From: an uncultured Gammaproteobacteria bacterium
GTDB lineage: Bacteria > Patescibacteriota > Patescibacteriia > UBA1558 > S5-K13
Assembly: GCA_964424195.1 (NCBI GenBank)
Contig: CAYRHT010000002.1
Span: forward strand, 80,120-144,119
Reading direction: 5' to 3'
DNA: 64,000 bases
Position numbers and translations under genes: made by a program. Shown piece by piece: positions 30,699 through 38,894 of this stretch; the stretch's first letter is position 1; each line of letters opens with the position of its first letter. The notes beneath the pieces were generated by a model that did not search any database, was not told the DNA's origin, and saw only the letters and a program-made list of their open reading frames with translations.

Positions 30699-31508
30699 AT
30701 GAGTAATATTTATCCATTTTTCATACCCCATAATCCTCTAATGATTTCTAAAATTGGAGTGGAACATTCTGAAAAACTTTCTACCTCTATTAAAGCTTTG
30801 AAGGATATTAAAAACAGGATTTATGAAATAAATCCTGATAAGATTTTAGTTATCACTCCTCCCTTTCAAGACTTAAATAATATTGTTATTAATCAAAGTG
30901 AAAAGTATTTAATTAACTTTAAATCTTTTGGAGATTTATCTTTAGAGTTTGAAGCTCCGGGAGATTTAGATTATAGTACTAGATTCAGAGACTTCTTAAG
31001 AAAGAATGATTTTAATGTAAATATGTTTTCAGAAGAAAAAGTTAATCATAAAGCTTTTGTTCCTTTCTATTATTTAAATAAATATCATACTTCTTCTAAG
31101 GGTTTTGAAAATGAATTAGTTCATGATTCATCTATTAAGAATGAGTTTATGGTTTTAAACTCTTCTCAAGCAGATTTAAATTATCATTGGGAGTTTGGAA
31201 AACTATTAGCTGATTTCTTATCTGATAAGAAAGAAGATATTGTAATTATAGCTACTAGTGATCTATTAGGTAGAGTTAAAAAGCAAGAAGAATACTTAGA
31301 AATAGCTCAAGAGATTATTGATTTAATTAAATTAGGAAAATATGAAGAGATTATTGGATTAGAAGAGAAATTAAAAAAAGGCTCTTATCCAGGGATTAAG
31401 CCTTTAATGATTATTGCACCATTGATTTCTAAATTAAACTTAAACTCAAATATATTATCTTTAGATAAGGAGTTTGGAGAAATATATCTAACAACAGAAT
31501 TTAAATAG
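30699..31508 (+). CDS. Memo/LigB-like (class III extradiol dioxygenase fold) protein, probably catalytically degenerate
   Basis: 269 aa. The N-terminus YPFFIPHNPLMI ... PDKILVITPPFQ parallels the (V/I)PHAGY ... vvilgPsH pattern of Memo/DODA-type proteins, but the second His position is substituted. Confidence 0.35.
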   Translation: MSNIYPFFIPHNPLMISKIGVEHSEKLSTSIKALKDIKNRIYEINPDKILVITPPFQDLNNIVINQSEKYLINFKSFGDLSLEFEAPGDLDYSTRFRDFLRKNDFNVNMFSEEKVNHKAFVPFYYLNKYHTSSKGFENELVHDSSIKNEFMVLNSSQADLNYHWEFGKLLADFLSDKKEDIVIIATSDLLGRVKKQEEYLEIAQEIIDLIKLGKYEEIIGLEEKLKKGSYPGIKPLMIIAPLISKLNLNSNILSLDKEFGEIYLTTEFK

Positions 31509-32334
31509 AACTCTTTTCTTTACTTGAGGGACAGGATTTTGGTAAATCCTGTTTTTTCCATTTTCGGAGGTAATAGAACCAATCTTTTAAATGAATCCAA
31601 GATAATTTATTGAATATAGATTTAAATACATTTTTTTCAGCTGATGCTTTTTGATGTAAATGAATAGCGGAAGTATTTCCTAAGTAATAGACAGCTTTGT
31701 TTTGACTCCATAAGTTTCGACATAAATCCATATCACTAAAATACAGAAAGAAGTTTTCATCATGAATATTATTATCCATTAAATCTTCTCTTTTTAATAG
31801 TAAGCAAGAACCCATGACCCAATCTACTTTTTTTACTGATTGATGATCAAAGTCTTTCATTAAGAATTTAGCTAGCCATTTTTGTCCAGCTTTAGTTCTT
31901 CCTAGAGAAGTTCTTCGATAGAAGGGGTAGTATAGATTAGGGAAACTATAGCAAGTATCTTGAATGCTAGTATCAGCATTATTTAAACGAGAGGCAACTA
32001 ATCCAGCATCAGAATTATTCTTCATAAATTCTAACATCTTCTCAATAGTTTCTTTCTCAATTCGAATATCAGGATTAAGGATTAAAATATATTTACCTTG
32101 AGCATTTTTAATAGCTAGATTATTCCCAGCTGGATAACCAATATTAGTAGAAGATTTAATAAATTTAATATTTGGAAAATCTTTCTTCACTATTTCTTCA
32201 ATATTATCTTGGGAGTTGTTATCTATCACAATAATCTCTGAATCAAACTCAAAATTATAACTATCTAACTTTTGAAGTTGATATTTAATTAAATTAGCAC
32301 TTTTGTAATTTAAGATGATTATAGATAGTTCCAT
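31501..32334 (-). CDS. Glycosyltransferase family 2
   Basis: 277 aa. N-terminal GT-A signature MELSIIILNYKSANLI ... VIDNNSQD. Confidence 0.8.
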   Translation of the reverse strand: MELSIIILNYKSANLIKYQLQKLDSYNFEFDSEIIVIDNNSQDNIEEIVKKDFPNIKFIKSSTNIGYPAGNNLAIKNAQGKYILILNPDIRIEKETIEKMLEFMKNNSDAGLVASRLNNADTSIQDTCYSFPNLYYPFYRRTSLGRTKAGQKWLAKFLMKDFDHQSVKKVDWVMGSCLLLKREDLMDNNIHDENFFLYFSDMDLCRNLWSQNKAVYYLGNTSAIHLHQKASAEKNVFKSIFNKLSWIHLKDWFYYLRKWKKQDLPKSCPSSKEKSSI

Positions 32335-32338
32335 AAAG

Positions 32339-33373
32339 TTAGTTATAGTATTTTTCTAATTCTTCAGCTTCTATTTTTACAATATTCTTAAAAATATATT
32401 TTCTTTTTATCTTCATCTTTTTAATTTGTTTCTTATTCTGAAGAAAGAATTTAAAAGTTTGTTTTTCAAATAATAGAATATATCCTAGTTTTTTAAATTC
32501 ATACCAGAAGATAGGCCAGAAATGTTTAAAAATATTCTTAGTAAATTCATTTTTAATAATACAGAATAAATGATTCTTGTAAGAATGTTGATTAATCCAA
32601 GTAGATTTAACCTTTCGGTTTTGGATAATAGATTTACCTCTTTTAATACTTCGATCATGATGAGCTACAACTTCAGGTAAGAAGTAGGATTTGTATCCAG
32701 CTAATTGCAATCTGTAAGCTAAATCAACATCTTCTTTGTAAGAAAAGAAGTCTTCATCAAAATACTCATTATCCATCTTTATCTTCTCTAAAGCCTTTCT
32801 GTTGTAAATTGGACAAGCTCCAGAAGTTCCAAATACTTTTTTTTGTTTTTGGAATTCTTCTTTATCCTTTTCTCCTTGTCCAATATCAAGAACTTGATGA
32901 TTAGGAAGTATTTCTAAACCACAGGTATCAATATTATTAGTTTTTTCCACATCTAGTAATTCTCGAGCTTTTTCTGGTTCAAGATTATCTCCAATATCCA
33001 TCTTCTTAAAATTCCATTGATATACCTTAGGACTCAAAGAACCAATATTCTTTTTTTGATCCAAGAACTCTAAAGAATTCTTTAAGAAGTCTTTGTCTAA
33101 AATTACATCTTGGTTTAAGCAAAGAACATATTCAGAATTAGTCCAAGAAAGTAATTTGTTATGACCCTGAGCAAAACCAGTGTTTTCTTTAAGAGCTACA
33201 ACTTTTAAGTTAGGATAATGTTCCTTTAAGTATTTAACTGAATCATCAGTAGATCCATTGTCTAAGATATTTAATTGCCAATCTGAAAAACTTTGTTGGA
33301 AAATAGATTCTAAACAAAAAGGTAGGTATTTTTTACCATTCCAAACTACTAAGTTGATATCGACTTTTGCCAT
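32339..33373 (-). CDS. Glycosyltransferase family 2
   Basis: 344 aa. GT-A signature VVWNGKKYLPFCLESIFQQSFSDWQLNILDNGSTDDS. Confidence 0.75.
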   Translation of the reverse strand: MAKVDINLVVWNGKKYLPFCLESIFQQSFSDWQLNILDNGSTDDSVKYLKEHYPNLKVVALKENTGFAQGHNKLLSWTNSEYVLCLNQDVILDKDFLKNSLEFLDQKKNIGSLSPKVYQWNFKKMDIGDNLEPEKARELLDVEKTNNIDTCGLEILPNHQVLDIGQGEKDKEEFQKQKKVFGTSGACPIYNRKALEKIKMDNEYFDEDFFSYKEDVDLAYRLQLAGYKSYFLPEVVAHHDRSIKRGKSIIQNRKVKSTWINQHSYKNHLFCIIKNEFTKNIFKHFWPIFWYEFKKLGYILLFEKQTFKFFLQNKKQIKKMKIKRKYIFKNIVKIEAEELEKYYN

Positions 33374-34839
33374 TTTATTTTTTCTAATATTATAATACTA
33401 ATAACTAGGAAACCTATTCCTAAAGGATGATCTAGATAAGGTGAAAATACATGGATGACAGAGATAGTTATTAAACTTAGAGCTAGGGAAATAATTAGTA
33501 TTCCTTCACTCCTCGGCCATTTCTTCATGGCTAGTTTAACAGAATCAATCAGTATTTTCAATATTAAATAGAGATACGCTAAAAGACCTAAGATTCCAAA
33601 CTTCATCCAAATACTTAACCAACCCCATTCAAAACTATATGTTGTCACTGAACCATCAGGATTCTTCTCATTCCTATTCCGAGGATCATGAGACATATAT
33701 GTAATTTCTTGAGCTAAACCATTTCCTAGAATTGGTTGAGCTTTAATTTTTTCTAACATATGAGGTAATAATTCTAAACGGGAATTACTAGCTGCTTCTC
33801 CAGAAGTTAATCTTTTAGCAAATAAGTCATCTAAATCAGTATCAGTATATGGAACTTTAACAAGTAGGAAGATGAACAAAACACTAAGAGCAGTAATTCC
33901 AATGAATTTTAGATAGACTTTAATAATCTCTAAGAACTTGATTTTCTTAACTATTAACCAAACAAAGAGCATGAATAGAAATACGGCTAATCCTACCCAA
34001 TAGCTTCGAGAAAGACTAATTAACAAAGCACTTAGATTTAAAACACTAAGAGTGATTAATAATTTCTTGTCTTTTAAATCAACTAAATCTCTTTTAAAAG
34101 CTAAGATACAGAAAGTAATAATTAGAGAGATAAGGATGTAGATTTGACTTTGGAAGAAGATTCTAAAGAAGCTCGGATTAACAATAGTTATTTCCCCAAT
34201 CCGAGAGTCACGAAGCCATTCATACAAGATAGTTAAATTTACTCCTGGAAAGTGATGGGAGAAGATATAGAAAGTTAGGATAGTTTTAATAGAAAAGAAG
34301 AATGATCCAGCTAGGAAGATATAGAAGAGATTCTTGAATATCTTTTGGTCTTTAGCTATTTGATAGAAGATAGGGAGAATGAAGATGAAGAGATAGCCAT
34401 TTAAATCAAAGAAAATATCTATCAGTCCTCTGTTTTTAAATAAAGCAATTACTATTCCTAAAATTAACATTCCTAAATATATTAGAATAGGAATTAGATA
34501 GGAGCTCTTTAGAAAATCAAATCTTTTTCTTTTAAATAAATATCTAATTCCAGCTAAGAAAGCTAAGATGAAAATAGCCATTCTCAAAGAAACTGTAAAT
34601 CCATTAATATTTAAGTCCATTAAATGCCCTTGAGAACCAACAAAGAGTTCTAGTAAGGGAATATAGACAATAAAGCTACTCTTCTTAAGCATTAAATAGA
34701 ACAAAGCTAGACAAGTAATGATGAAGAATACTATTTCAAATCTAGGAAAGGTATGAGTGTAAAAGAAAAAAATGTCAGCAATTATTAGTGACCAAAAAGT
34801 ATATTTAAAGTAACTATTATTCCAAGTTGGAGAGATCAT
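33349..34839 (-). CDS. O-antigen ligase/polymerase-like (Wzy_C family) integral membrane protein
   Basis: 496 aa, roughly 10-12 TM helices. LSRSYWVGLAVFLF-type motif in a periplasmic loop. It lies within the glycosyltransferase cluster. Confidence 0.55.
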   Translation of the reverse strand: MISPTWNNSYFKYTFWSLIIADIFFFYTHTFPRFEIVFFIITCLALFYLMLKKSSFIVYIPLLELFVGSQGHLMDLNINGFTVSLRMAIFILAFLAGIRYLFKRKRFDFLKSSYLIPILIYLGMLILGIVIALFKNRGLIDIFFDLNGYLFIFILPIFYQIAKDQKIFKNLFYIFLAGSFFFSIKTILTFYIFSHHFPGVNLTILYEWLRDSRIGEITIVNPSFFRIFFQSQIYILISLIITFCILAFKRDLVDLKDKKLLITLSVLNLSALLISLSRSYWVGLAVFLFMLFVWLIVKKIKFLEIIKVYLKFIGITALSVLFIFLLVKVPYTDTDLDDLFAKRLTSGEAASNSRLELLPHMLEKIKAQPILGNGLAQEITYMSHDPRNRNEKNPDGSVTTYSFEWGWLSIWMKFGILGLLAYLYLILKILIDSVKLAMKKWPRSEGILIISLALSLITISVIHVFSPYLDHPLGIGFLVISIIILEKIKWQKSIST

Positions 34840-35690
34840 TATGTTTTTACTTTTGATTTAAGATTAATTTTACTAATTAGATAACCAATAAGCCAAGCTA
34901 TCCTTAATAATATAAATTGCCAAGGAGAATGCCATTTTTTAAAATACTTAATCATAGAATTCTGAAAGTATTTTTGAGTAATACCTCTTGGTACTTGCTC
35001 AAAACTTTTACCAACATAATCAATACATTCAGCTACTGGAGTATACCAAACTTCTCCTCCACTCTTAGATACTTTCTGACAGAAATCTACTTCTTCAAAC
35101 CAAATAAAGTATCTTTCATCTAAACCATTTAATTCTTCATAGATATTTCTTCTCATCATAAAGAAAGCTCCTCGGATAGAATCTACTTTAGAAGCTTGAG
35201 AATAATCAAAGTTTTTACAAAGGTATTTATCTAATATGAATGGTAGAATATGGGGTATTTTAAGAGTAATAGCAAGTTGGTCCCAGAATCTAGGAAAACG
35301 TCTAATATGGTGCAAAGTTTTACGATTTTGGTCTATTAAATGACAACCAGCTATACTAACTTGAGGGTTTTCATCCATCCACTTAATCATGTTCTCTAGA
35401 GTATGAGGAAGAATTTGCATATCTGGGTTTAAGAGTAAAACATAGTCATATTTAGTCTTTTCAAATCCCAGGTTATTGGCTTTAGCAAATCCTAGATTCT
35501 TACGAGAATCAATTAAATTTACTTGAGGGTACTTTTCTTTAATCATTTTTAGACTTCCATCTTGGGAGTTGTTATCAACTACAATTACATCTAATTCAAT
35601 ATTTTCAGAATTAGAAAAGATAGATTGGAGACAATTGTCTAACAAGTCTTTGACTTTGTAATTAACAATGATTATGGATAATTTATGCAT
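34839..35690 (-). CDS. Glycosyltransferase family 2
   Basis: 283 aa. GT-A signature MHKLSIIIVNYKVKDLLDNCLQSIF ... VVDNNSQDGS. Confidence 0.8.
   Translation of the reverse strand: MHKLSIIIVNYKVKDLLDNCLQSIFSNSENIELDVIVVDNNSQDGSLKMIKEKYPQVNLIDSRKNLGFAKANNLGFEKTKYDYVLLLNPDMQILPHTLENMIKWMDENPQVSIAGCHLIDQNRKTLHHIRRFPRFWDQLAITLKIPHILPFILDKYLCKNFDYSQASKVDSIRGAFFMMRRNIYEELNGLDERYFIWFEEVDFCQKVSKSGGEVWYTPVAECIDYVGKSFEQVPRGITQKYFQNSMIKYFKKWHSPWQFILLRIAWLIGYLISKINLKSKVKT
35656..35690. repeat. Direct repeat copy A (GT2 gene 5-prime end) flanking the HEPN-like gene
   Basis: ttgtaattaacaatgattatggataatttatgcat. The first 20 nt are identical to copy B at 36354-36373. Confidence 0.7.
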
Positions 35691-36324
35691 GTTGTTTTTT
35701 AAAGTTTTTTGTTTTTATCAATTTTTGAGCTTCTGAAAACAAATTATTAAATTTTTCTTCTAGTATTTTATGATTATCTCCTGATGACAAATAAAAATTT
35801 ATATTTCCAGATTTTTTTACCAGAAAGTTGATAATGAATAAAGTATTCGAAAATATTCTAGGTAAACCAGATATTTCCAGTGCCCATAATTTTGGTATAA
35901 AGTGAATAAAATCATTTCTTAGATTATTTAATCTTTTTATATCATCATCAATTTCTTTCGTTGATTTTAATTTTTTACTATTTATATATTGGATCATTAT
36001 ATTGCTTTTAATTTTATTGTATAATTTCGGAAAATAATCCAATTTTTCATTGGGTCTTTTTAAATTTTTATTTCGATTATTATATTGATAATAATTTAAC
36101 ATTTTTTTACCAGATTTTTTATCTAAAATAGGAAAATTATTAGTACCTCTAAGTGCATGAACCATAAAATTTTGAAAAGAATTATGTAGGGAAATAATAG
36201 CCCATTTCCAATAATGGTTGTCTTTGGGTATTTTTTTAAGAAATAAGACGAAAACTTCTAGGCTATTAATAGCTTCTAGAATTGTATCTGTTTCTAGATA
36301 TTCTTCGTTATTTTTTTCTAGCAT
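35683..36324 (-). CDS. Hypothetical protein with an R-N-x3-H (HEPN-like) motif
   Basis: 213 aa, very AT-rich codon usage. Motif DIKRLNNLRNDFIHFIP (R136/H141, encoded at about 35896-35925). No other recognisable domain. Its stop overlaps the GT2 start (ATGCATAA). Confidence 0.4.
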   Translation of the reverse strand: MLEKNNEEYLETDTILEAINSLEVFVLFLKKIPKDNHYWKWAIISLHNSFQNFMVHALRGTNNFPILDKKSGKKMLNYYQYNNRNKNLKRPNEKLDYFPKLYNKIKSNIMIQYINSKKLKSTKEIDDDIKRLNNLRNDFIHFIPKLWALEISGLPRIFSNTLFIINFLVKKSGNINFYLSSGDNHKILEEKFNNLFSEAQKLIKTKNFKKQHA

Positions 36325-36325
36325 T

Positions 36326-36385
36326 AATTTAGAATTTATTCATTAAAGATTTTTTGTAATTAACAATGATTATAGAGAAATTCAT
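36326..36385 (-). pseudogene. Vestigial 19-codon remnant of a GT2 gene 5-prime end
   Basis: On the minus strand, ATG at 36385-36383 (an ATGA overlap with the TGA stop of the upstream gene) gives MNFSIIIVNYKKSLMNKF*. This matches the MHKLSIIIVNYK start of the GT2 gene at 35690. Confidence 0.5.
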
Positions 36386-36388
36386 AGA
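36354..36388. repeat. Direct repeat copy B (GT2 5-prime remnant) flanking the HEPN-like gene
   Basis: ttgtaattaacaatgattatagagaaattcataga. A 20-nt exact match to copy A, with about 70% identity over the following 15 nt. Confidence 0.7.
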
Positions 36389-37362
36389 TTTATTTTTTTA
36401 TGTTCTGAGTTAAAAGATATTGTGGATGCTTCTCTAATAAAATATTTTATGATTTTTGGTATTGCTTCTTCAAATATCCATAGAGTTATTTTTTCAAATA
36501 TCCATAGAGAGGATACAATGTAAATAGCTGTTAAAAAGATATTTTTATATATGTTGATTATGAATAAAGGTTTAATATTTTTAAAATAAAAAAAGGAGTA
36601 GAATAATAAATGTAATATCGAATAGAATACTAAAACTTTAGTATTAACCACAAGTCCTATTCCTAAGAGATTGCTTTTTGGAGCTGAGCTCTCTTTTTTC
36701 TCTTTTAAGTAATCTTCTAATTTTTCCTTTTCTATGCTGTTGGGAATGGTAGAACTTATAATAACTTCGTTAATTGTTTCTTGTTTGAATATTGGTGTAT
36801 ATTTATATTTATCTTTAGTTATTATAAGTAGTAGAAAACTAAAAAAATTGGATATATAATAAAATAAATTTTTTACAAGAATACAGTGAAAGAATAATCT
36901 TAATCTAATATACCACCCTTTATTTAAACTAGTTGGTTTTATATGAAGACTATATATTTTATTTAGCAGTTCTACTGCTTGAACTTCTTTATTTTTTTTA
37001 GCCAAGAAGAACTTTTTACTAGTAAGGTTGAAATAATAGTCTTTAGATTCTAGATCAATTGGTTCTGTAATTTTTGGCTTACTACGAAAACTAATTCCAC
37101 CATTAGTATGCTCCTCGCCATATATGACTCTAATGAATAATATTTTATTATTTTCATTATTTTTATATTTTTCATTTGAAATGTAAATAGATATCATGGA
37201 AGCATTTTTATCGTCTTCCATTTTTTTCTTAATACTTATTCCGGGTACATCATTTATATATGGAGTTATATTGTAAAAACCATTTCCAATATTATTGAAT
37301 TTTTCTGCTAACGAATTATTGTTACGATTTTGTTCCATATTATATCTTCTCACAAAACTCAA
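36382..37362 (-). CDS. Hypothetical integral membrane protein (N-terminal soluble ~150 aa plus ~4 TM helices)
   Basis: 326 aa, extremely N/K/I/F-rich. TGA stop. The start region overlaps the gap gene's stop; an alternative start MEQNRNN lies at 37338. No recognisable family. Confidence 0.45.
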   Translation of the reverse strand: MSFVRRYNMEQNRNNNSLAEKFNNIGNGFYNITPYINDVPGISIKKKMEDDKNASMISIYISNEKYKNNENNKILFIRVIYGEEHTNGGISFRSKPKITEPIDLESKDYYFNLTSKKFFLAKKNKEVQAVELLNKIYSLHIKPTSLNKGWYIRLRLFFHCILVKNLFYYISNFFSFLLLIITKDKYKYTPIFKQETINEVIISSTIPNSIEKEKLEDYLKEKKESSAPKSNLLGIGLVVNTKVLVFYSILHLLFYSFFYFKNIKPLFIINIYKNIFLTAIYIVSSLWIFEKITLWIFEEAIPKIIKYFIREASTISFNSEHKKINL

Positions 37363-38338
37363 TTAATCTATTTGAATATCCCCATTCATTATCATACCAA
37401 GAAACTACTTTAACTAAATTGTCACAGATTACAGTGGTTGATAAAAGGTCTACAATAGAAGAATGGGGATTACCAATAATATCAGTAGAAACAATTGGCT
37501 CTTCAGTAGCTTGGAGAATACCTTGCCATTTTTTAAGTTTAGCTTCCTTTTTAAATACTTTGTTAATTTGTTCAGCAGTAACTTTCTTTTTAGTTCGAAT
37601 AGTAATATCTGATAATGAACCATCAGCTACTGGAACTCGAATAGCCATACCATCAAATTTACCTTTTAATTTAGGAATTACTTTAGTAGTAGCAATAGCT
37701 GCTCCAGTTGTTGTGGGAATAATATTAATAGCTGCAGAACGAGCTCTTCTTAAGTCTTTATGAGGAGCATCAATTAGTTTTTGATCAGCAGTATATCCAT
37801 GAACTGTAGTCATTAAAGCTTTTTCAACACCAAAATTATCACACATAATTTTCATTACTGGAGTAATACAATTAGTAGTACAAGAAGCTAGGTCATAGAT
37901 CTTTTTACTTTTAGATATTTTGTCTTCATTTACTCCAGGAACTATAGTTTGGATACCATTGCCTTTAGAAGGAGCGGAAATAACTACTTTCTGAGCTCCA
38001 GCTTTGAGATGTAAACTAGCTCCAGCTTTGTCTCTAAATACTCCAGTAGATTCAATAACTATATCAACTTCTAATTCTTTCCAAGGTAAATTAACTGGAT
38101 CTTTTTCAGAGAAAGCTGGTATCTTTTTACCATTGATAGTTAAAGCATCTCCACTAGCCTTAATATCTCCTTTAAAGTTTTCTTGCACAGAATCATACTT
38201 TAAAAGATGAGCTAGGGTTTTGTTATCTGTTAGATCATTAATAGCTACTATTTGAATATTCTTATTCTTCAAAGCTATTTTAAAAGTTCCTCTACCTATT
38301 CTACCAAAACCATTGATAGCGATTCTTATTTTCTTCAT
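37340..38338 (-). CDS. gap: Type I glyceraldehyde-3-phosphate dehydrogenase
   Basis: 332 aa. NAD-binding motif INGFGRIGR and the catalytic motif ASCTTNC. Confidence 0.9.
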   Translation of the reverse strand: MKKIRIAINGFGRIGRGTFKIALKNKNIQIVAINDLTDNKTLAHLLKYDSVQENFKGDIKASGDALTINGKKIPAFSEKDPVNLPWKELEVDIVIESTGVFRDKAGASLHLKAGAQKVVISAPSKGNGIQTIVPGVNEDKISKSKKIYDLASCTTNCITPVMKIMCDNFGVEKALMTTVHGYTADQKLIDAPHKDLRRARSAAINIIPTTTGAAIATTKVIPKLKGKFDGMAIRVPVADGSLSDITIRTKKKVTAEQINKVFKKEAKLKKWQGILQATEEPIVSTDIIGNPHSSIVDLLSTTVICDNLVKVVSWYDNEWGYSNRLIEFCEKI

Positions 38339-38354
38339 ATGTTTATTTAATTAT

Positions 38355-38894
38355 TTATTTTAAATTATATCCAGCCTCTAAAGCTGCAATATTCATCTTT
38401 TTAAGCTCAGGATATTGTTTGTATTTGTGAGCTAATTTTTTGTTCACTTCCTTTTTAATATCTTCTAAACTTAGAATATCTTTAATATGTCTAACTATTA
38501 ATCCTAGAACTAACATATTCATTACTCGATTACTTCCCATTTCATTAGCTAGAGTATCAAAAGCATATCCTTTAGCTCCTTTGGGAGCTGATTTTACAAA
38601 GTCTTTGTTGTAGATAATTACAGATTTGTTATTAACATAGTCTTCTGCTCGAGCAATAGATCTTTCGGATAGGAAGACAGCTATGTCAGCGATAATAAAC
38701 TTAGGATAGTTAATTTTATCTTTTCCAAACTTAATATATCCTAAAGAAACTCCACCTCTTTGTTCTACTCCATAGTTAGGAACAAAAGAAACTTCTAAGC
38801 CTTTGTGATAAGCAGTTTCAGTTAAGATTTTACTAATAGTTTGAACTCCTTGTCCTCCTTCACCAGCTATAAGTATTTTAATATTATGTTTCAT
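38355..38894 (-). CDS. 2-oxoacid:ferredoxin oxidoreductase gamma subunit (PorG/KorC-like)
   Basis: 179 aa. Motif IKILIAGEGGQGVQTISKIL, typical of POR gamma subunits. Confidence 0.7.
   Translation of the reverse strand: MKHNIKILIAGEGGQGVQTISKILTETAYHKGLEVSFVPNYGVEQRGGVSLGYIKFGKDKINYPKFIIADIAVFLSERSIARAEDYVNNKSVIIYNKDFVKSAPKGAKGYAFDTLANEMGSNRVMNMLVLGLIVRHIKDILSLEDIKKEVNKKLAHKYKQYPELKKMNIAALEAGYNLK

Follow-up and report, generated by a model that had tools for sequence, protein, structure and literature searches.

How can a tightly packed operon take up an extra gene without being broken? This question is raised by a glycosylation operon on contig CAYRHT010000002.1 of an uncultured member of the Patescibacteria, which we analysed in a window of 64 kb (the whole stretch of DNA under study; coordinates refer to it unless a related locus is named, and all genes of the locus lie on the minus strand). 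There, the start of a GT2 glycosyltransferase gene occurs twice as a direct repeat, and an open reading frame (ORF) of 213 amino acids (aa), whose product is predicted to have a HEPN fold, lies between the two copies. An earlier reading, made without database searches (the sequence-only reading), had described a gene cassette inserted or exchanged at this point with duplication of its target. Our analysis favours, with a probability of about 0.75, a lineage-specific insertion of a foreign HEPN-fold gene accompanied by duplication of the GT2 start. The insertion and the duplication of the earlier proposal were thus retained, whereas the integron-type or dedicated cassette and the exchange were not.

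The duplicated GT2 start

The exact repeat is 21 nucleotides (nt) long (ATAATCATTGTTAATTACAAA on the coding strand) and lies at 35655-35675 and 36353-36373. An ungapped extension matched at 27 of 30 positions, between copy A (35655-35684) and copy B (36353-36382, located by repeat search and pattern search), with a start-to-start spacing of 698 nt. The repeat had been given as 20 nt exact and about 35 nt imperfect, with the downstream copy as the start of the intact GT2 gene, and this description was essentially correct. Copy A covers codons 3-12 of the live GT2 gene (34839-35690; 283 aa, MHKLSIIIVNYKVKD...; Pfam Glycos_transf_2, E = 2.8e-27), which starts with the ATG at 35690-35688 (MHKLSIIIVNYK). 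Copy B lies in a short ORF read from the sequence, a vestigial GT2 start or stub (36329-36385, MNFSIIIVNYKKSLMNKF*). The stub is as proposed before and consists of 18 codons and a TAA. Its ATG (36385-36383) overlaps the TGA of the upstream membrane-protein gene (36384-36382) as ATGA, as had also been pointed out. The 213-aa ORF (35683-36324) starts 4 nt past the TAA of the stub, and it ends with a TAA inside ATGCATAA, where the ATG of GT2 lies as well.

Orthologues of the GT2 protein in related loci (70-86% identity) start with MNLSIIIVNYKVKDLL (282 aa) or MNQLSIIIVNYKVKDLL (283 aa), that is, with an MNLS-type or an MNQLS-type start followed by IIIVNYKVKD. The stub, with MNFS..., is nearer to the usual orthologue start, MNLS..., than the live gene is with MHKLS.... 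The stub is therefore the ancestral GT2 start, which was once coupled to the membrane-protein gene. At the DNA level, the stub aligned with the orthologue starts from the ATG through TACAAA, where similarity ended; copy A aligned with them from AAATTATCC on and continued into the gene. The left end of the inserted DNA (36325-36352; 28 nt, comprising the last 7 codons of the stub, its stop codon and the 4-nt spacer to the ATG of the HEPN gene) showed no homology to GT2, the alignment breaking right after TACAAA. Extending the stub alignment beyond this point with a 3-nt gap gave 10 of 24 matches, which is not above the AT-rich background, and this extension was rejected.

A counterpart without the insert was found in the related locus L008. 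This locus lacks the 213-aa gene, and its orthologue of the membrane-protein gene (51% aa identity) is separated by 4 nt from an intact GT2 orthologue (79% aa identity) downstream. The live GT2 start of L008 (ATGAATCTTTCCATAATCATAGTTAATTACAAA) lines up with the stub, at a position identical to that of the stub in the window. L008 thus shows an empty site with flanking genes as in the window. Together with the resemblance of the stub to the MNLS-type start, this supports the earlier suggestion that GT2 was once directly coupled to the membrane-protein gene. The comparison of presence and absence in relatives that had been recommended gave the same picture, as no homologue of the 213-aa gene was present in any of the GT2-orthologue loci fetched, about 155 in number.

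As the repeat is built on the conserved N-terminus of GT2 proteins, chance needed to be tested. The sequence-only reading had named a motif common to GT2 starts as a possible objection, and in part this is the case: the third GT2 start in the window (32302-32322) matches the core at 18 of 21 positions, and a sequence encoding IIIVNYK occurs at 63 places in related loci. Identity at the level of codons, however, appears to be specific to the two copies. A search of the window with the 21-mer, allowing up to three mismatches, returned 3 matches, where 0.05 would be expected. For the peptide IIIVNYK and the codon usage of the window, the probability that all seven codons coincide is 0.0097, and none of the 63 IIIVNYK-encoding sites shares the 21-mer, from which they differ at 1-6 positions. 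In 159 loci, we also scanned 4 kb of sequence upstream of the GT2 orthologue for near-copies of its first codons. A match of 27/33 was found only in the four copies of the source locus, whereas the best near-copy in the other 155 loci was 23/33 and the median across all 159 was 19. The agreement in position between the stub and the live start of L008 likewise speaks against coincidence.

With regard to assembly error, four independent assemblies from three data sets (JGI 3300022916, JGI 3300028174 and Logan SRR8437084) showed no mismatch over the 3.5 kb from GAPDH to GT2, and the same context was seen in each of the 24 contigs read on which GT2 or the 213-aa protein is encoded. No empty-site variant within the source species was seen among these 24 contigs, and the insertion is fixed in all sampled assemblies. 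The codon-level statistics and the identical assemblies therefore show a real duplication and remove the concern about an artefact that had been raised along with the original proposal. We give practically no weight to convergence on the shared (S)IIIVNYK motif in an AT-rich genome or to misassembly.

The 3 differences between copies A and B all affect third codon positions and lie in the 5' 9 nt; the other 21 nt are identical. By our own estimate, three random differences would all land in one end segment with P ~0.05, so this clustering does not choose between the two histories with which the pattern is compatible, namely duplication followed by a few substitutions and a crossover within the core.

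The HEPN-fold protein and its foreign origin

The sole gene of the insert, the 213-aa ORF, belongs to no family in Pfam, NCBIfam, PADLOC or PHROGs, and yielded just a weak match to a Csm6-like HEPN region (E = 0.011) besides noise. Searching PDB by sequence, with profiles from 13 and from 62 sequences, returned nothing meaningful. A word-indexed search detected 15 relatives (35-47% identity), and an exhaustive profile search retrieved 1,812 representative clusters at E <= 1e-3, including 297 at E <= 1e-30. The family thus amounts to about 1,800 clusters at 50% identity, mostly stand-alone proteins of about 200 aa; in the few longer members, the N-terminal extensions hold no Pfam domain.

Residue conservation in the alignments brought out an Rx4H motif, R136-N-D-F-I-H141 within LRNDFIHFIPK (35902-35919). 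With this spacing, R136 and H141 are shared by every member of the 13-sequence alignment; among 62 aligned sequences, R136 did not vary either, and H141 was retained in at least 90%. The protein therefore has the conserved Rx4-6H motif (R136-NDFI-H141) of the superfamily. A confident AlphaFold2 model built from the family alignment (pLDDT 84.5, pTM 0.84) predicted an all-alpha helical bundle of the HEPN fold, and Foldseek placed HEPN entries at the top of its matches to the model, although weakly. No curated HEPN model scored above threshold; sub-threshold matches among the 62 members were to HEPN_Apea (4), HEPN_RiboL-PSP (4) and HEPN_Cthe2314 (1). On the strength of the predicted fold and the motif, we file the 213-aa protein in the HEPN superfamily, as a family outside any curated model, which agrees with the label "HEPN-like" given to it previously.

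HEPN proteins are established as RNases (PMC3710099, PMC4621449, PMC7641770). By analogy with other HEPN proteins, the 213-aa protein would act as an RNase by means of a composite Rx4H site, and it is predicted to be an RNase toxin or a defence effector. Its closest systems are HepT of the HEPN/MNT modules (e.g. SO_3166, PDB 5yep), AbiV, the HEPN domain of AbiA and the HEPN region of Csm6 (PMC3710099, PMC4621449, PMC7641770). Compared with minimal HEPN proteins of about 130 aa, the protein is larger, at about 200 aa, and has extra helices. Unlike the genes of HEPN/MNT modules, the 213-aa gene has neither an MNT antitoxin nor another conserved partner gene: its neighbours, the membrane-protein ORF and GT2, carry no MNT domain, and none was found in the contexts of its homologues. 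The family is a sizeable one without a Pfam model and deserves a name and a test.

The GC content of the 213-aa ORF (22.4%) is the lowest among the 51 long ORFs of the window (mean 29.9%, standard deviation 2.8), and the source, a 952-kb contig from a Patescibacteria/Parcubacteria-like organism, has a GC content of 29.6%. The earlier description of a single ORF of very low GC overlapping the GT2 start therefore held. GC content at third codon positions is normal, which means that the deviation lies in amino-acid composition. Homologues occur in genomes of 40-49% GC, beside an Mrr-type restriction endonuclease and within a string of small ORFs, as well as on plasmids of Alteromonas and Methylomonas, where they are annotated as hypothetical proteins. 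These contexts share no common neighbour and never adjoin GT2. Taken together, such comparisons show that the gene is foreign and patchily distributed. A phage origin was considered and rejected, as the 213-aa protein had no match in phage records and homologues on viral contigs were rare, with only three distant IMG/VR loci.

One metagenome contained both sides of this distribution. ENA sample ERZ24794656 holds L171, a close relative of the host whose GT2 is 85% identical and which lacks the insert, and also L001, a contig of 49% GC that carries a 45%-identical HEPN homologue beside an Mrr endonuclease. Members of the HEPN family and relatives of the host thus co-occur.

The probable insertion event and its alternatives

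According to the favoured explanation, about 0.67 kb of foreign DNA with exactly one gene would have entered the 5' end of GT2 right after codon 11 (...AAT TAC AAA), 33 bases into the gene, and the insertion would have duplicated its first 30-33 nt. The downstream copy, with its ATG at the right edge of the insert, would keep GT2 intact, and the upstream copy would remain as a dead 18-codon stub, ATGA-joined to the membrane-protein gene. Through this duplication, both the newcomer and the host gene would stay translatable. The HEPN gene would be expressed from the operon via a series of coupled junctions, running from the membrane-protein TGA and the ATG of the stub through the stub TAA and 4 nt to the HEPN ATG, and ending with the HEPN TAA in ATGCATAA. 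Ribosomes that finish the membrane-protein gene would restart on the stub, end 4 nt before the HEPN ATG and finish the HEPN gene inside the GT2 start. From this arrangement we infer that the HEPN gene is co-transcribed and translationally coupled in the operon, and coupling through the stub would explain why the frame of the stub has stayed open. The insert consists of one ORF and a 28-nt leader, with no trailer. Promoter-like sites at the insert were not above those in shuffled sequences (14 versus 9.5, standard deviation 2.7), and neither a terminator on the coding strand nor an Rfam family was detected there.

As to mechanism, a fragment could have circularised and been integrated by a single crossover at the 21-nt core; template switching and homology-facilitated illegitimate recombination (HFIR) are further candidates. 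A single crossover with a circular molecule duplicates the homologous segment (PMC3240628), and for type VI secretion system (T6SS) and Rhs loci, HFIR has been proposed as a process by which pieces of genes are orphaned (PMC5361080). These sub-mechanisms are inseparable, because no donor is known and GT2 shows no mosaic break at the available resolution. The insert had no terminal inverted repeats. Its surroundings, to about 10 kb in each direction, contain housekeeping and glycosylation genes, and no integrase, transposase or recombinase is among the genes called there. Neither the core nor the insert had a further copy, be it in the window or among 173 loci of other organisms, the core 21-mer being confined to the source organism among 175 loci. 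We consider that a one-off, non-site-specific mechanism, a single illegitimate or short-homology recombination event, has even or slightly better odds. The idea of a recurrent capture site was dismissed, given that none of 155 other loci had a duplicated GT2 start.

Among known systems, the event is most like Campbell-type single crossover and HFIR, in which foreign DNA without a recombinase of its own likewise enters and the target is duplicated or a fragment orphaned, here inside a conserved operon (PMC3240628, PMC5361080). Compared with the experiments in E. coli (109-950 bp; PMC3240628), the duplicated segment is short, at 30-33 nt; and in contrast to the Campbell-type and HFIR cases, there is no known donor here, and the orphan piece is the 5' start of a gene, not a 3' end. 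Integron cassettes also comprise one promoterless ORF at a defined junction that relies on upstream expression signals. The insert, however, lacks attC, attI and a nearby IntI, coding sequence is duplicated, and there is no repeat-bounded cassette array. Its 3' end has no imperfect palindrome that could serve as attC and matched no structured RNA or DNA; since the stop codon of the 213-aa ORF overlaps the GT2 ATG, there is no 3' non-coding DNA at all. Neither an integron integrase nor attI was present among the genes within about 10 kb on either side. Integrative elements at the 3' ends of tRNA genes share the flanking direct repeats (attL/attR), one of which restores the intact target. Here, by contrast, a protein-coding gene is the target, at its 5' end, and the insert is 0.7 kb long, has no integrase and occurs once; of the features of an att-flanked element, the repeats with one copy restoring the target were found, and recurrence or an associated recombinase was not. 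Transposons and insertion sequences are likewise flanked by a direct duplication of the target, but of 2-15 nt and not of 30-33 nt. Terminal inverted repeats, a transposase and further copies are all missing, as the sole ORF is the HEPN gene and no other copy lies in the window.

Several points weigh against the favoured explanation. In a sliding-window comparison of nucleotide identity between GT2 and 10 relatives (about 84% identical at best), no mosaic break was seen. The donor search, which bears on the mechanism, found no homologue closer than 47% identity. A duplication of 30-33 nt exceeds classic target-site duplications, and the pattern of 3 mismatches in the 5' 9 nt followed by 21 perfect nt could mean a crossover core, and with it a site-specific or homology-guided event. 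The direction of the event rests on parsimony, since precise excision between the repeats could also give an empty site. The coupling and the RNase activity are drawn by inference, and the putative toxin has no evident antitoxin partner.

Two alternatives were weighed. Foreign DNA could have been imported by homology from a related strain whose HEPN gene lay upstream of its own MNQLS-type GT2, so that copy A would come from the donor and copy B from the recipient; within GT2, homologous recombination would have joined the right end, while the left end would have been attached illegitimately after recipient codon 11. That foreign DNA can enter by HFIR is established (PMC3240628, PMC5361080), and the 5' part of copy A, ATGCATAAATTATCC (283-aa protein), does resemble the MNQLS-type orthologues of 283 aa, the stub being of MNLS type. 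But the ungapped 27/30 alignment between the copies is more parsimonious than such a derivation, and since orthologue cores differ from that of the window by 1-6 nt, an identity of 21/21 between donor and recipient is not expected. With no donor-like locus among 175 loci and no identity break along GT2 at the low resolution of that comparison, this import, which merely shifts the original insertion one step back, is unlikely. Alternatively, the insert could be a minimal non-autonomous integrative cassette, with the 21-nt core as an att-like site, a recombinase encoded elsewhere, and the GT2 5' end as a target for which it supplies a substitute start, in the way that integrative elements restore tRNA gene ends. 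A perfect core with divergence on both sides is the pattern expected of attL/attR hybrids, apart from a 28-nt leader the insert is trimmed down to its one ORF and lacks a trailer, and the junction between GAPDH and GT2 holds different genes in different relatives. Against this stand the absence of an integrase within about 10 kb and of any hairpin or attC-like structure, the single occurrence of the core and of the duplicated GT2 start among the loci compared, and the fact that homologues of the 213-aa protein never lie beside GT2; we regard such a cassette as quite unlikely. Extending it further, the GT2 start might be a reusable capture site in reduced genomes, at which promoterless cassettes enter an att-like core, rebuild the GT2 start and use the existing coupling; the membrane-protein gene would have come earlier and the HEPN gene later, and the stub, as a leader for coupling, would determine how strongly a solitary HEPN toxin without antitoxin is expressed. 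This scheme we see as a long shot.

The order of events could also be turned round. The stub would then be the remnant of a tandem second GT2 that was replaced or deleted, as an exchange would have it, or the HEPN gene would be ancestral and lost in relatives via the repeats. Direct repeats do allow precise excision, and the operon contains several GT2 paralogues. In every relative, however, a single GT2 stands between the upstream gene and the Wzy-like gene, and the 27 of 30 nt shared by the stub and the live start would call for a very recent duplication. An ancestral HEPN gene would need to have been lost in at least eight related lineages, and the repeats would still require an insertion. 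We therefore hold both versions to be very improbable.

Returning to lineage-specific insertion with duplication of the GT2 start, the empty-site junction in this species would read ...TCTATGAATTTCTCT-core-GTCAAAGAC..., and a circular excision junction ...CAACATGCATAAATTATCC-core-AAATCTTTAATGAAT... (in the rival-model form, ...ATGCATAAATTATCC-core-AAATCTTTAATG...). As judged here, the locus is a clean but isolated case of ordinary horizontal gene insertion. Events of this kind are known, and current views are not overturned. Its value lies in a well-documented, base-pair-resolved case of a streamlined genome of the Patescibacteria (candidate phyla radiation, CPR) gaining an accessory, probably conflict-related gene without breaking a packed operon, and in the lead to an uncharacterised HEPN family.

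The membrane-protein gene and the boundary between GAPDH and GT2

The insertion lies in a compact gene block. A gene for a POR subunit (38355-38894) is followed after a gap of 16 nt by the GAPDH gene (37340-38338; Pfam Gp_dh_N and Gp_dh_C), and from GAPDH onward all junctions are overlaps or gaps of at most 4 nt. GAPDH is the conserved upstream anchor of the variable junction, its protein being 85-97% identical to those of relatives. Next come the membrane-protein gene (36382-37338; 318 aa from the ATG, or 326 aa from an upstream TTG at 37362), the stub, the HEPN gene and GT2. The rest of the glycosylation operon (31501-34839), assigned by Pfam, consists of a Wzy_C/O-antigen-ligase-like gene (33349-34839) and of a second (32339-33373) and a third GT2 gene (31501-32334). 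Its gene order is equal in the relatives L009 and L173.

The membrane-protein ORF has no family in Pfam, NCBIfam, PADLOC or PHROGs, and its GC content (24.0%) is the second lowest among the 51 long ORFs. Its sole homologue is P0137 in L008 (51% identity), and the gene is absent from L009 and L012. These features suggest an accessory gene that came to the same junction earlier. In the simplest history, the membrane-protein gene would have arrived in an ancestor shared by L008 and the window lineage, and the 213-aa gene would then have been added in the window lineage only.

The junction after GAPDH, ATATAA-T-ATG (ATATAATATG), is identical in the window (37330-37345, minus strand), in L009 (9990-10005) and in L008 (395-410). 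It precedes GT2 in L009 (ATGAAC...) and the membrane-protein ORF in the window and in L008 (ATGGAAC...). Because the same junction stands before both genes, the membrane-protein gene may also have entered just inside the GT2 start and have taken over its start codon, although no more than about 6-7 nt are similar, which chance could explain. In its 3' part, the membrane-protein gene contains a 24-nt tandem duplication (36466-36509 in plus-strand coordinates; TTCTTCAAATATCCATAGAG and TTTTTCAAATATCCATAGAG, 24 nt apart) encoding SLWIFEKI and TLWIFEEA; the L008 homologue has one copy.

The content of the boundary between GAPDH and GT2 differs among the other relatives. In L009 and L012 the two genes abut, and in L013 and L091 they are separated by a spacer of about 200 nt. 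An asparaginase-like gene lies between them in L010 and L011 (173 aa; 211-732 and 722-1243, respectively) and in L090 (365 aa; 720-1817), and decayed asparaginase-like fragments occupy this position in L170 (5639-5997), L171 and L172 (233-592). Depending on the lineage, these fragments are of 42 and 84 aa or of 119 aa. Such a comparison of gene orders indicates that the boundary is a hot spot of gene content in this clade.

The spacers themselves show some structure. In L013 (5950-5995) and L091, the spacer upstream of GT2 is made up of short tandem units (TGTAAATTGTAAATTTCAAATTGTAAATTGTA). The spacer 3' of GAPDH in L011 (560-720) and L090 (557-720) is conserved and contains an inverted repeat (...TTGTCATTCTGAACTTGTTTCAGAATCT...) that has no counterpart in the window and may be a terminator or a regulatory hairpin. 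Further upstream in L009 (7260-8991), an extra glutamine synthetase gene and a 132-aa ORF, neither of which is present in the window, lie between the POR subunit gene and GAPDH; by its position, this difference appears to be another indel in the same conserved block.

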